A stretch of DNA of 29,349 bases from a virus (Duplodnaviria; Heunggongvirae; Uroviricota; Caudoviricetes), in the IMG/VR virus record IMGVR_UViG_2671180349_000006, one strand, 5' to 3'. Below are positions 2,187 through 14,926 of the stretch, in pieces (positions within the stretch are counted from its first letter, which is position 1; each line of letters starts with the position of its first letter). The notes beneath the pieces were generated by a model. The model saw only the letters and a list, made by a program, of their open reading frames with translations, was not told where the DNA came from and did not search any database. A program made the translations under genes and the position numbers.

Positions 2187-2215
2187 ACAAAAAAGCCCGC
2201 CTGAACCGGCGGGCT
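2187..2215 (-). terminator. Intrinsic terminator-like hairpin after lom, immediately upstream of stf
   Basis: Minus-strand stem AGCCCGCC/GGCGGGCT (2194-2201 / 2208-2215), 6-nt loop, followed by TTTTT (2189-2193). Confidence 0.55.
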
Positions 2216-2241
2216 GTCATAACACTGTGTTACCTGGCTAA

Positions 2242-2841
2242 TCAGAACTTATAACCGACACCCACGATGAAACCGTCAGTGCGCCAGTCGCCACTGCCGG
2301 AGCCTTCATAAGCAATATCAATGGCCACGGATTCGGTCGGGTTAAACTGCACGCCAGCTCCCCACGCCAGAGACGTGTTGCTGTGGCGACCGTCATCACT
2401 TCCGGTCAGCACGTCGTGCGTTTTCCCCTTGTTGTCAGTTACGCGGAGATAATCCCCGGAGAAAGTCGACACACGGCTGTAAGCCATACCCGCCATCGCA
2501 TACGCGCTGAACCATTCATTCACGCGCACAGACGGCCCCACCATCACGCTGAACCAGCGGTTACGCACGGAATCTTCATGCCAGCGGGTATCGCTGTAAC
2601 GGGTAAGCTGGCGATTCTTGTCTCCTGCATAGCTGAATGACGTCACCAGCCCCAGTGTGTCCGTAAACTCATAACGGTATTTCACGTTAATCCCGTTCAG
2701 ATCATCACTGCCGGGAACGTTCGTCCGGGCATGAAGATACCCCGCGCTCAGCGTGGACTGATGTTCAGACGCCCATGCAGGCGCACCGGATACGGCCAGA
2801 CAAATGGCTGCGGACAAAATGGCGGCATAAAGTTTACGCAT
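2242..2841 (-). CDS. lom: Lom outer membrane protein (Ail/Lom family)
   Basis: 199 aa with signal peptide [24 protein letters not shown] and C-terminal beta-barrel ending ...GVGYKF; located between J and stf as in lambda. Confidence 0.9.
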
Positions 2842-2864
2842 AATTACCTCTCGCTTTTCTGCAA

Positions 2865-2889
2865 TAAAAAAGGCGTCATTTCTGACGCC
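2865..2889 (-). terminator. Intrinsic terminator-like hairpin between J and lom
   Basis: Minus-strand stem GGCGTCA/TGACGCC (2872-2878 / 2883-2889), loop of 4, followed by T6 (2866-2871). Confidence 0.55.
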
Positions 2890-2907
2890 CGTTCTGGGTT
2901 ATAAAAT

Positions 2908-5900
2908 TCAGCTGATACTGATACCTGCTGTGGATTTTTTCATCACCACAACCAGCAGATCGCTGATACTGGTTGTTGGTGTCCAGTTATTCGCTCCTGA
3001 TGAAGATACGGTGAATGTCAGTGTCAGCGTCCCCTGTCCGGCAGGCATATCTATAACTGAGGAAAATACGCCCTGAGCATCCGTCGTGGACTGATTAAAA
3101 ATCTCCTGACCATTGCGGGTCACTCTTAACCGGCAGGTTGAATACCAGTATGACTGTTGGTTATTACTGTTGAAATTCTCATGCTTACCACCGCGGAATA
3201 ACACTGGCGGTATCATGACCTGCCGGTCAAATTTCTGATCATCACTGATTCTTACCGTGATGGTGCCACTGGCATAAGTGCTCGTGCGGGGGAAAGACTT
3301 GCTGACCGTTTTGACAATATCACCTTCAATCTGGTTGGCTGACAGTTTCCCCTTAATCTGACAGTTCTCATTAATCGTGACGTTGTTGAGCGTCCCTGAG
3401 TTCGCATTCACACTGCCACTGATATCCGCATTTTTAGCGGTCAGCTTTCCGTCTGATGTCAGGGAAAATACCGGAGGGCTGCCACCGCTGGTAATGGTGG
3501 GGGCTGTCAGGCGCTTCAGGAACACGTCGTTCATGAATATCTGGTTGCCCTGCGCCACAAACATCGGCGTTTCATTCCCGTTTGCCGGGTCAATAAACGC
3601 GATACGGTTAGCGGCAACCAGAAACTGGCTCAGCTTGCCTTCCTCCGTGTCCTCCATGCTGAGACCAATACCCGCGACATAATGTTTGCCGTCTTTGGTC
3701 TGCTCAATTTTGACGCCCCACATGGCATTCCATTTATCGTTAGCGTCCTTCCACTCTTTCGAAAACTCATCCAGTCTGCTGGCGTTATCCTCCGTCAGAT
3801 CAACTTTTTCCAGCAGCTCTTTACCGAGATGGGATTCGGTTATCTTGCCTTTGAAAAAATCCAGGTAACCTTCCGCATCATCGCTCGCCCGACCGACGGC
3901 CTCCACGAATGCCGATTTGCCAACGGTGTTCACACTGCGGATATAAAAGTAATAATCATGGCCCGGTTTGATATTGATACTGGCGGCTATCCAGTACAGC
4001 CCCGTGCCAAGGTAGCGGGCTGTGGTTTCAACCTGCCTGATATCGGTAATCCGCTTTTCCGAGAACCAGAACTCAAACTGTACCGTCGGATCATAAACGG
4101 CAAGATGCGGCGTTGCGGTTATCTGAAAATAGCCCGGCGTCAGCTCAATCCGCGACGGTGCTGCCGGTGCGGCAATCCGGAACGATACCGACGCCGGATC
4201 GCCCTGCTGCCCCCAGGCATTTGCCGCCCGGACTGTCAGCCTGTAGTTCCCCAGCGCCAGTTGCGTGAAGCGGTATGTGGTTTCCGTCGTCCGGGCCGTG
4301 CTGACCAGCCGCTCACTGCCGTCATCCGCTGCCACGGTCAGGCGAAGCATAAAGCTCACGCCCTTCACCACCTTCGGCGTGTCCCAGCGCGCCAGCACCT
4401 GATACTCCCCGCTGTCTGCGGTGACTTCGGCAGTCAGGTGCTGCACCGCGGGCGGCGTGACGCCATTCACCGTGCCGCTCTGGTCGCCGTCAAAGTGCGC
4501 CCCGTTATCCACGATGGCTTCTTTTTCGGGTACATGCTGCACGGCGGTGATGGCATACGTGCCGTCGTCGTTCTCACGGATACTCACGCAGCGGAACAGG
4601 CGCTGGCGCAACGTCGGCAACTTCAGCCCCCATACGCTGTATTCAGCAACGCCGTCAGGAACACGGCTCACTTTCACCTTCACGCCGTCGGTGACGGACT
4701 GGACCTCCACGCTGACCGGATTACCCTGCCCGTCAACCAGGCTTATCAGCGTGGTGCCGGAGGATGGCAGCGTGATTTCACGGTCGAGCGTCAGCGTCCG
4801 GGTCTGGCTGTTCACCGCCAGCACGCGACCACCGATGCTGATACCGGCATAGTCATCATCGCAGATTTCAATAACATCGCCCGGCACATGGCGAAGCCCT
4901 TCTGCGCCCACGCTGAAATCCACGGTCTGCGTTTCCAGCAGTTCCGTTTTAATCAGCCACAGCCCGGCTCGGTGTGCCTGCCCCCGACTGGTACAACCAA
5001 AGGCATCCATCTTCGTGACATTACGACCGTAACGGGCAATGGCCTGCGTATCTTCAACAAGCTCTGTCGCCGTCTCCCAGCCGTTATTCGGGTCAATCCA
5101 GTTCACCTCAACGGCATTATGGCGGTCCTTCAGGGCGCTGAAGCTGTAGCGGAACGGCGCACCATCATCCGGCATCACCACATTACTGCGGTTATAGGTC
5201 CACACCTTATCTGATGGTCGGTCCTGCACGAACGTCAGCGTCTGCCCGTTCCATACCGGCATACAGCGCATCGCCGAGCAGAAATCACTGAGCACATCCC
5301 ACGCCTTACGCTGTGTGGTCAGGTACGCATTACAGGTAATGCGCGGCTCCGTGCCGCCAAAGCCGTCCGGCACCGACTGGTCGCAGTACTGGCCGATGAC
5401 ATACAGCGCCCATTTATCCACATCCGCCGCACCAAGACGTTTCCCCATGCCGTAGCGCGGGTGGGTCAGCATATCCCACAGACACCAGGCCATGTTGTTG
5501 CTGTATGCCGGTTTTAACGTTCCGTCCCAGATACCGCTGTATTGCCGCGTCTGCGGGTTATAGTTCGACGGCACCTGCAGAATACGCCCGCGAAGATGAT
5601 AATTACGGCTCACCTGCTGGCTGCCGAACTGCTCCGAATCCACCTTTACGCCGACCAGTGCCGTGTTCGGGTAGCCCTGTTTCACATCGATGATTTCGGT
5701 GTATGACGACCAGAGCGTTTTGTTCTGCAGCTGGTCTGTGGTGCTGTCCGGCGTCATTCTGCGCATCCGGATATTAAACGGGCGCGGCGGCAGGTTATCC
5801 ACCACCACCGAGGCCAGATACTGCGAGGTGGTTTTGCCCTTAATGGTGATGTCTTTTTCCGTCACCCAGCCACCATTACGCTGTATCTGAACCAGCAGGC

Positions 5901-13764: not shown

Positions 13765-14207
13765 TTACTTAAGACCTCATCAATAGCCTGATTCATTCGC
13801 TGTATGGCAACCTGCGCCGCCAGCTCCTCTGTCGTATCGAAAGCCGGGCGAATGAATGGATGCGCGGGCATGTTTATCGTTCCCAGCTCCACAAAGCGCC
13901 AGTAAAATGCATTTCGGGGATCGCTGGCTTTCATGCTGTTATCACTGTTTCCGGTTCGCAGGTTCCGTCCGCGAATGTGGACACCCGAGATAATTTCCCC
14001 CCGACGCTTTGAACGCTGAGTGAGAACAACCACATTTTTCTTCAGTTTCCCGGTTCGCTCTGGCGCACGTTCAACAACTGCATCCCGCATAACTTCAGCA
14101 CCGGCACGGGTGGCATCGCGCAGAACCTTATTGTTTTCTGCCCTGCTGAGCGTCTCCAAATCCCGTGCAATATCCGCCAGGCCAGAAAAATCAAGACTGA
14201 AATCCAT
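13761..14207 (-). CDS. HK97 gp10-family tail-component protein
   Basis: ATG at 14207 (the ORF-track start is a GTG one codon earlier); overlaps the upstream stop as ATGA; position between head-tail adaptor and tail terminator. Confidence 0.6.
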   Translation of the reverse strand: MDFSLDFSGLADIARDLETLSRAENNKVLRDATRAGAEVMRDAVVERAPERTGKLKKNVVVLTQRSKRRGEIISGVHIRGRNLRTGNSDNSMKASDPRNAFYWRFVELGTINMPAHPFIRPAFDTTEELAAQVAIQRMNQAIDEVLSK

Positions 14208-14545
14208 CACACATTCCCCTTCAGGCTGCAGAGTATTTCAAGCCGGGTAGCGCGTGCATCCGGTATTGGTGGACCTTCTATACCCAGAATGGCCCCTTTA
14301 AATGCACCGGTCAGCACTTTTAGACATGAAGTTGCTGTTACATCTCGCCGGAATCTCATCCAGACTCTGACCGTAGCCTGAGCGGTTTCTGCTCCGCCTG
14401 AGATTATCTCCCTCCCGCTGATACCCTTAACTTCTGCCCATACGGTAGCTCCCTCCGTCACCGTCTCCACCGGATGCCCTGACGGAGAGCGGGCGGTGGT
14501 GACATTCAGAATAATTACGCGATCACGTAATCTGCCCGCCTGCAT
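14207..14545 (-). CDS. Head-tail adaptor / head closure protein
   Basis: 112 aa; strong AGGAGGAGG Shine-Dalgarno before ATG 14545; position downstream of the connector gene. Confidence 0.6.
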   Translation of the reverse strand: MQAGRLRDRVIILNVTTARSPSGHPVETVTEGATVWAEVKGISGREIISGGAETAQATVRVWMRFRRDVTATSCLKVLTGAFKGAILGIEGPPIPDARATRLEILCSLKGNV

Positions 14546-14553
14546 GCCTCCTC

Positions 14554-14871
14554 CTACAAAGGAATAAAACGATAAGGCTCCAGCAGAGAAGAAAAACCAA
14601 ACGGGACTGGTGCCTTGCTGACATCTGAGGAATTTTCCCGGTTTTCGTACCAGTGCCCGACCAGCAACATGAGCGCCAGCAAAACATCATCAGCTATAAG
14701 CACCCCTTCAGGATCACCTTCCGGCACCGTCTCCTCATAAAGCTTACGGTTGATAAAATTTTCTGCCTTGCGGCAGGCAGCCCGGAAATACAGCATCAGT
14801 AACTCATCATCAGTTGCATCATCTGTATCAATACGGCACTGCGCCCTGAGTTTTTCCACTATTGCTGCCAT
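14554..14871 (-). CDS. Head-tail connector (gp6-like) protein
   Basis: Start re-placed at ATG 14871 (GGAG upstream); the ORF-track start at 15051 would overlap the capsid gene and two hairpins. Confidence 0.6.
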   Translation of the reverse strand: MAAIVEKLRAQCRIDTDDATDDELLMLYFRAACRKAENFINRKLYEETVPEGDPEGVLIADDVLLALMLLVGHWYENRENSSDVSKAPVPFGFSSLLEPYRFIPL

Positions 14872-14903
14872 CAGAAACTCCTGCCCGCAACACTGTGCGG
14901 GCA

Positions 14904-14926
14904 TAAAAAAACCGCGTCGGCGCGGT
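14904..14926 (-). terminator. Intrinsic terminator after the major capsid gene, followed by a second hairpin
   Basis: Minus-strand stem ACCGCG/CGCGGT (14911-14916 / 14921-14926), loop of 4, followed by T7 (14905-14910 region); a second 8-bp stem lies at 14882-14903. Confidence 0.6.

Follow-up and report, generated by a model that had tools for sequence, protein, structure and literature searches.

The DNA analysed here is a stretch of 29,349 nucleotides (nt), listed in IMG/VR as the virus record IMGVR_UViG_2671180349_000006 and called the window throughout, and it contains six terminator-like hairpins between the genes of a phage late operon. The window is 100% identical to Escherichia coli EC32 (NZ_CP085619.1) and represents a lambdoid prophage at the ydfJ/Qin locus. 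According to the RefSeq annotation the late genes all lie on the minus strand, in an order that runs from the antiterminator gene Q over two tRNA genes, a small RNA (sRNA) gene and accessory genes to the holin, lysozyme and Rz genes, then over HNH, terS, terL, portal, protease, the major capsid protein (MCP) gene and four head-tail connector genes to the tail genes V (major tail protein), G, T, H (tape measure protein), M, L, K and I, and ends with J, lom and stf. The prophage resembles HK97 in its head module and lambda in its region of tail tip, lom and stf. An original prediction had placed six stem plus T-tract structures on the coding strand of this operon, and direct reading of the minus strand finds all of them present, one each after the MCP gene, before V, before H, and in the gaps between I and J, J and lom, and lom and stf (Table 1). 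These six sites are canonical, strand-specific and evolutionarily maintained intrinsic-terminator elements of the late operon.

Table 1. Hairpins, genes and regulatory features of the prophage late region, in window coordinates; energies refer to the core hairpin unless stated otherwise
Feature	Position	Strand	Description	ΔG (kcal/mol)	Score d
MCP/connector terminator	14902..14928	−	stem AGACCGCG/CGCGGTTT (14928-14909), loop CCGA, then T7	−7.0; extended stem −11.2	12.4
Second hairpin, 3' of the MCP/connector terminator	14884..14903	−	GCCCGC-ACAGTGTT-GCGGGC, no U tract; abuts the Shine-Dalgarno (SD) sequence of the connector gene		
gp17 (tail completion)/V terminator	13373..13399	−	stem ACCCGCC/GGCGGGT (13399-13383), loop GCT, T7AT4, directly followed by SD and ATG	−10.3	40.7
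T/H terminator	11935..11958	−	AACCGC-UUCG-GCGGTT stem (11958-11943), C(UUCG)G loop, then T8	−5.4	12.7
I/J terminator	6319..6348	−	core CCGCC/GGCGG (6345-6332) plus A:U extension, then T4ATCGT3	−9.7; with A:U extension −17.4	12.3
J/lom terminator	2865..2890	−	GGGCGTCA-GAAA-TGACGCCT stem (2890-2871), GAAA loop, then T6	−11.4	22.1
lom/stf terminator	2188..2215	−	AGCCCGCC-GGTTCA-GGCGGGCT stem (2215-2194), then T6	−16.0	34.6
MCP gene	14948-16165	−			
V gene	12655-13359	−	major tail protein		
H gene	8693-11920	−	tape measure protein		
J gene	2908-6306	−			
lom gene	2242-2841	−	accessory outer-membrane gene, PF06316		
Q gene	25758..26579	−	Pfam PF03589, E 6.3e-55; RefSeq 'antitermination protein'		
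pR'-like promoter and tR'-like terminator	25653..25752	−	directly downstream of Q, read from sequence; candidate promoter TTGATT-16 nt-TGgTAAATT (25752-25725); hairpin 25675-25660, then T6		9.3 (hairpin)
STnc100 sRNA gene	24476-24665	−	Rfam RF02076, 132 bits, full-length match; between tRNA and lysis genes		
STnc100 terminator	24476..24506	−	hairpin 24506-24485		24.2
Terminator before holin	23392..23426	−	9-12 bp stem, T6; ends 36 nt 5' of the holin start codon		20.6
iss	21409-21702	+	bor-like serum-survival lipoprotein		
hokD/sok locus	28373-28781	−	toxin-antitoxin; Rfam sok, 107 bits		
hokD/sok terminator	28386-28373	−	after hokD		

Scores and placement of the hairpins

The whole 29 kb were scanned on both strands with a d'Aubenton-Carafa-type scorer, in which the hairpin free energy (ΔG) per length, taken from ViennaRNA, is combined with a weighted score of the T tail. 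In the whole window ten sites reached d>0, all of them on the minus strand, and none was found on the plus strand, for which reason bidirectional terminators were rejected. The level expected by chance, derived from 30 dinucleotide shuffles, is a mean of 0.1-0.2 sites per strand with a maximum of 2; a looser scan of positions 1-16000 gave 26 sites, with 14.8±3.0 expected. The ten include all six sites under discussion, whose d values range from 12.3 to 40.7, the highest score of the window belonging to the hairpin before V, and whose core energies are −5.4 to −16.0 kcal/mol. Their stems have 5-8 bp with 4-7 G:C pairs, their loops 3-6 nt, and the U tract on the 3' side of the stem is T6-T8 at five sites and T4 followed by an interruption at I/J, which has the weakest tail (tail scores 3.4-5.0). 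A consensus scan listed five of the six; the I/J site was dropped by its filter and was confirmed by reading and scoring.

The same script was applied to lambda as a positive control, where it gave tR2 (d 16.8), t_oop (20.8), tL1 (13.8), timm (11.5) and tI (0.4) and likewise recovered tL3, so that the recovered lambda terminators span d 0.4 to 20.8, whereas tR' with its long hairpin was missed. The terminator prediction with free-energy scoring that had been proposed as a check thus places the six sites on a par with proven lambda terminators, and by these scores they look at least as good. None of the six sites matches an Rfam 15 family at the gathering score; the matches obtained are STnc100, sok and two tRNAs.

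Between terS and stf the RefSeq annotation has 20 gene junctions. Fourteen of them are overlaps or gaps of no more than 23 nt; each of the other six is a gap of at least 46 nt (76, 60, 46, 60, 66 and 64 nt), and it is in these six gaps that the hairpins are located. The non-coding DNA of the 18-kb structural operon consists almost entirely of terminators and ribosome-binding sites.

Conservation in close and distant relatives

Among close relatives, for which 160 related IMG/VR loci (numbered with the prefix L) were used, the J/lom stem occurs in compensated variants (GGCGTCA/TGACGCC, GGCACCA/TGGTGCC and GGCGCCA/TGGCGCC). The distant set comprised 12 prophages of other genera (Phytobacter, Leclercia, Symbiopectobacterium, Pectobacterium, Enterobacter, Kosakonia, Superficieibacter and Brenneria), HK97 and the window itself; relative to the window, the V proteins of this set are 66-79% identical and the gp17 proteins 38-62%. 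Hairpins were detected there separately in each sequence, anchored on the start codon. Upstream of V, 14 of 14 genomes have a hairpin with U tract whose end is 21-24 nt from the start codon, one of the stems being imperfect; upstream of H, the corresponding distance is 18-26 nt in 12 of 12. The post-capsid hairpin, present in 6 of 11 genomes, is the least conserved one. All 14 hairpins upstream of V and all 12 upstream of H have at least five T, mostly six to eight, within the first 8 nt past the stem. The stems before H vary and stay paired (CCGC/GCGG, CCCGC/GCGGG, CCTG/CAGG, CCCCG/CGGGG, CCCTC/GAGGG), and 31 of 32 terminator matches in the distant loci lie on the coding strand. The sequence 5' of the hairpins could not be aligned between the distant genomes, and RNAalifold on a MAFFT alignment of 13 gp17/V gaps, an alignment that is not structure-aware, returned a consensus of four pairs only. 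Because the U tracts are invariant, the strand specificity is strict and the stems are compensated, termination itself appears to be the selected property of these elements. It is especially the preservation of the U tract that argues for termination, as a barrier against exonucleases needs the hairpin alone.

The hairpin before H requires a separate consideration, as its exact 21-mer AACCGCTTCGGCGGTTTTTTT (the CUUCGG hairpin with T7) is present in at least 120 viral contigs (L177-L296). Downstream sequence is sufficient in 117 of these contigs. In 72 of them an H-like gene comes next, and the tape measure genes behind the 21-mer are 42-100% identical to that of the window; in the other 45 it stands before other gene starts or at the end of an operon. 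An unusual conservation of this hairpin across genera was therefore rejected, the 21-mer being a generic CUUCGG terminator that precedes many unrelated genes, and its recurrence could reflect repeated convergence or a spread by recombination.

Some joints of mosaic exchange fall on the hairpins. In twelve of the close loci the capsid gene is a different one and closes with another hairpin, which takes the place of the MCP/connector terminator, the breakpoint lying in the 3' arm or the T tract; similarly, a variant T gene joins directly 5' of the T/H hairpin. In about a fifth of the close relatives (e.g. L075, L056, L078, L076, L073, L064 and L035) the same connector gene is preceded by a different capsid gene. 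In total, such joints were found on the MCP/connector hairpin in 11-12 loci and on the T/H hairpin in two. Only 2 of about 19 clusters of homology breakpoints among the close relatives coincide with hairpins, most of the clusters lying in the J C-terminus, stf, H and at connector/closure, and the idea that the hairpins are the mosaic joints was for this reason rejected except as a minor alternative.

Three side observations belong to these regions. Most breakpoints among the close relatives are not at gene boundaries but inside the C-terminal part of J (2920-3860) and in stf (840-1840), which are receptor-binding regions. The variant capsid gene has its stop codon TAA within the loop of the terminator-like hairpin that ends it, and a terminating ribosome would consequently overlap the hairpin. 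The second hairpin that follows the MCP/connector terminator in the window is kept in L164 and L166, where the stem changes are compensated, and is found also in the unrelated contig L187, and in these three the whole tandem layout recurs, in which the terminator and its U tract are followed by AUGCCCGN, the second hairpin and the SD.

Insertion sites and lom

Relatives of the prophage carry additional genes at two of the junctions. Between gp17 and V there is an insert of 840 nt coding for a 176-amino-acid KilA-N-like protein, with a hairpin on each side, and between T and the hairpin before H there is one of about 400 nt coding for a 111-amino-acid predicted membrane/zinc-ribbon protein with a CxxC...CxxC pattern; the relatives that have them are L169 (2843-3373 and 4678-5013) and likewise L165, L170, L172 and L173. 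At both sites the insert leaves the resident hairpin beside V or H. Correspondingly, in those contigs with the T/H 21-mer that have a T-like gene, this gene ends 11 nt upstream of it in 35 cases and about 400-412 nt upstream in 30, and in HK97 the gene of gp15 is inserted at the same position between T and H as the insert of about 400 nt in the relatives.

In the window itself the accessory gene is lom, which is located between J and stf as in lambda and is absent from this place in HK97. Its start codon follows the J/lom stem at a distance of 30 nt and the T tract at one of 24 nt. The lom/stf hairpin, with the second-highest d of the six, serves as its downstream terminator. A moron has been defined as a gene together with a promoter and a factor-independent terminator (PMC3714127). 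In line with such cassettes, lom is an accessory gene that is variably present in related phages and is followed by a strong terminator, but in contrast to them it has neither a detected promoter nor a compositional contrast, and in this prophage four of the six hairpins have no accessory gene beside them.

Q and further terminators of the late operon

The suggestion that the late operon is read under the control of Q is borne out as far as the Q gene and a tR'-like terminator are concerned, which are both present; the pR'-like promoter has been recognized by eye only and is absent from the list of the consensus promoter scan. The gene product belongs to PF03589, which is named the Q-lambda family in 10.1101/651190. 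The candidate pR' begins 6 nt past the Q stop codon, with ATAATAAT as a −10-like element near its predicted start, and the tR'-like hairpin lies about 85 nt past that stop codon. The pair predicts a leader RNA of about 65 nt, after which the genes of tRNA-Ile and tRNA-Arg would follow.

The tR'-like hairpin (25675) is one of three co-oriented terminators upstream in the late operon that were outside the range of the original prediction, the two others being at 24506 and 23423, and the tenth site with d>0 is at 28386 in the early region. Strong terminators also follow each inserted non-structural unit upstream, one of them ending the STnc100 sRNA gene and another standing just before the holin gene, and the latter would shield the lysis genes from Q-independent transcription. 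The holin-proximal terminator is located downstream of two pseudogene fragments, and STnc100 is adjoined by the anti-adaptor gene iraM on the opposite strand.

According to a preprint (bioRxiv 10.1101/651190), Q forms a nozzle on the RNA exit channel that blocks terminator hairpins and is processive over tens of thousands of nucleotides. By analogy with this general mechanism, it can be expected that the Q-loaded polymerase would read through the downstream terminators of the prophage.

Two further loci lie near or in the late operon. The iss gene is on the opposite strand between Rz/Rz1 and the HNH/terminase genes, a position in the late operon that corresponds to that of bor in lambda. The hokD/sok locus, which has its own terminator, is in the early region upstream of Q.

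Comparison with known late operons

Terminators inside late operons are an already annotated property of HK97-like and lambda-like phages and are not new. In the HK97 record (NC_002167) 'terminator, putative' features follow the major head protein gene, separate the genes of the tail terminator protein and the major tail subunit, and precede H, I and J; four of them match sites of the window (after the major head protein 5192-5213, before V 6692-6719, before the tape measure gene 8398-8422, before J 15107-15129). As in the window, a GC-rich stem is followed by a U tract and then by SD and ATG, and the gp11/V hairpin even has the CCCGCC/GGCGGG stem of the window, whereas the stems after the MCP gene, before H and before J differ (before J it is AGCCACC/GGTGGCT, with CCACC/GGTGG in place of CCGCC/GGCGG). 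HK97 differs also in having further hairpins at portal/protease, V/G (without U tract) and K/I, in the insertion of genes (gp15, gp22/23) at two junctions, and in lacking lom and hence the J/lom and lom/stf pair. The HK97 paper is reportedly that of Juhala et al. from the year 2000.

As regards lambda, the I/J gap is about 95% identical to lambda 15442-15508 and the lom/stf gap about 94% identical to lambda 19583-19653, in both cases including the hairpin, while between J and lom the lambda hairpin with its U tract has a sequence that is not homologous to that of the window. In contrast to the window, lambda has no gaps and hence no hairpins at U/V and T/H, and after E no terminator above the listing cutoff of −10 is found, but instead there is one between D and E. 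Luk and Szybalski are reported to have described, in 1983, tandem termination sites (t'J) of this operon, located behind J.

A terminator directly after a capsid gene in a late transcription unit is also known from phage T7, where the partial terminator T-phi follows gene 10 and its read-through has been measured; it differs in acting on the T7 RNA polymerase and in involving no antitermination factor. The P22-like phage L, too, has a predicted Rho-independent terminator, at the end of its procapsid module and within a late operon that depends on a single promoter and antitermination, although this phage is a podovirus with different genes and one site was discussed rather than every gap. In the genome paper of phage L (Zaworski et al. 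2021, PMC8022706), terminators inside operons are described as common with roles 'not known', and the candidate roles put forward are a partial termination that lowers the level of downstream mRNA, or the stopping of spurious transcription that is not antiterminated. Late gene clusters of SPP1 are also delimited by stem-loop terminators (PMC6316719).

Possible functions of the hairpins

With moderate confidence, the best explanation for the six hairpins is a serial fail-safe insulation in the lysogen that is combined with Q-dependent read-through in lytic growth. During lytic growth, polymerase loaded with Q at pR' would pass tR' and all terminators after it, in total at least nine sites over about 26 kb, and thereby the whole operon would be expressed. 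As the Q-loaded polymerase is termination-deficient, the polymerases that are stopped would be those without Q, which could stem from leakage at tR', from promoters of inserted genes (lom, STnc100 sRNA, tRNAs) or from spurious starts inside the prophage, and which would be halted within one gene block. The pair of hairpins around lom would represent the terminator part of a lambda-type lom cassette. The hairpins may in addition double as docking points, in that inserts come to lie behind the upstream gene and 5' of the resident hairpin, which they borrow as terminator. With a terminator already in place, accessory genes could settle at such junctions safely, in agreement with the inserts found in the relatives. 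After Q-loaded transcription the hairpins would fold in the free RNA, where they probably act as 3' exonuclease barriers with a secondary, stabilizing effect on mRNA segments. The elements, their strand specificity and their conservation are seen in the sequences, as are the Q gene and the pR'- and tR'-like sequences next to it; that Q allows passage, that polymerase lacking Q is stopped, and what the hairpins do biologically is inferred.

Several points weigh against this insulation. In or near the J/lom gap no sigma-70-like promoter was found on the minus strand by a simple consensus scan, with which a weak or atypical one may be overlooked. A compositionally foreign origin of lom is not supported, since its GC content (0.56) matches that of J (0.562) and stf (0.562), and the cassette reading of lom draws only on its position and its homology to lambda. 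Moreover, Rho would also stop spurious untranslated transcripts, and the need for intrinsic terminators is therefore not obvious. Finally, the constant spacing of 18-26 nt to the downstream start codon, whatever lies upstream, could indicate a function that is tied to the downstream gene.

The hairpins could alternatively set the stoichiometry of late mRNAs in lytic growth, either because some of the Q-loaded polymerase would terminate at them or because they would block 3' exonucleases once an endonuclease has cut the RNA, with the consequence that mRNA for abundant proteins (capsid, V-G) would outlast or outnumber that for low-copy ones (connectors, H to J). Such a role, which the original prediction had named beside insulation, fits the two clearest steps down in copy number, from MCP to connector and from G/T to H, at both of which there is a hairpin, and the terminator after the capsid or procapsid genes recurs in HK97, phage L and SPP1 with their different controls of late transcription. 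T-phi after gene 10 of T7 and the stem-loop after the major pilin gene papA are known to work as stoichiometry devices. The idea is contradicted, however, by the site before V, which has the best score and is the most conserved (14 of 14) and yet precedes the most abundant tail protein and follows two earlier terminators; likewise, lambda has its hairpin between D and E, both of which are present in about 400 copies per virion, the sites I/J, J/lom and lom/stf divide genes of low-copy or non-virion products, and it is the post-capsid hairpin that is least conserved (6 of 11). In addition, Q-loaded polymerase has been described as termination-deficient (10.1101/651190), and an invariant U tract is not needed for an exonuclease barrier. 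A stoichiometry device is thus possible but rather doubtful as the function of the six sites. It is one of the roles proposed for intra-operon terminators in the paper on phage L (PMC8022706), as is insulation, and the choice between the two is beyond sequence analysis.

It is unlikely that hairpin, U tract and SD form one unit that belongs to the start of the downstream gene, with termination being incidental, although the constant spacing (V 21-24 nt, H 18-26 nt) holds irrespective of whether T, gp17 or an insert of 400-840 nt is located upstream. In such a unit the hairpin would insulate the ribosome-binding site or form the protective 5' or 3' end after an RNase E cut in the U tract, and the U tract would provide a single-stranded S1/standby platform. 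Breakpoints immediately 5' of or within the hairpin imply that it travels with the downstream gene, and the same layout is found before holin, J, lom and stf. Yet the observed spacing is the minimum for a U tract, SD and spacer, which compaction alone explains, H as a low-copy protein needs no enhancer, the identical 21-mer also ends operons without any gene start behind it, and there is no sign of processing in the sequence. Somewhat unlikely as well is the broader notion that hairpin, U tract and SD, besides giving a stop signal, jointly serve HK97-like tail operons as a conserved module for gene starts and docking, whose ready-made terminator would allow accessory genes (those of the membrane/zinc-ribbon and KilA-N-like proteins and of HK97 gp15) to be inserted harmlessly on its 5' side.

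It is very unlikely that the hairpins are mere remnants or seams of past module exchange and gene insertion and of little function today, being either terminators that came with earlier inserts or short common sequences used by recombination to join modules. It is true that joints lie on the MCP/connector hairpin (11-12 loci) and the T/H hairpin (2), that genes have been inserted at exactly these junctions in the relatives and in HK97 (gp15, gp22), and that the T/H 21-mer is found in many unrelated contexts, but most breakpoint clusters are elsewhere (J C-terminus, stf, H, connector/closure), and the compensatory stems and invariant U tracts persist across genera in which the flanking proteins are 38-79% identical. 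Compensated stems and kept U tracts speak for a continuing selection on the structure, unlike a neutral residue. Extremely improbable, finally, are 3' ends of Hfq-binding sRNAs, which, like HnrS or StxS of enterohaemorrhagic E. coli prophages, would either have genes of their own or be released from the tail of the preceding mRNA. Late regions of prophages do contain sRNA genes with their own intrinsic terminators (PMC13502914, PMC7547250), STnc100 is present in the window, and a hairpin with U tail is the 3' module that Hfq binds. At the six sites, however, there is no Rfam family, the gaps are only 46-76 nt, the consensus scan detected no promoter-like site on the minus strand upstream of any of them, and the genomes share no conserved sequence 5' of the hairpins; the sRNA reading was rejected as unlikely due to the missing Rfam matches and upstream promoters.

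Implications

The prophage provides a quantified example of a long-noted feature, namely serial intrinsic terminators that would be passed only by antitermination-competent polymerase, and it raises no new question, as the role of such sites has already been posed in the literature (PMC8022706). If the hairpins also form a docking module, terminators would shape where accessory genes accumulate in prophages, and they may tune the translation or processing of the V and H mRNAs. If they are insulating, they would help to explain why the lysis and structural genes are silent in the lysogen in spite of a constitutive pR' and the promoters of embedded accessory genes, and also why accessory genes build up at particular junctions.

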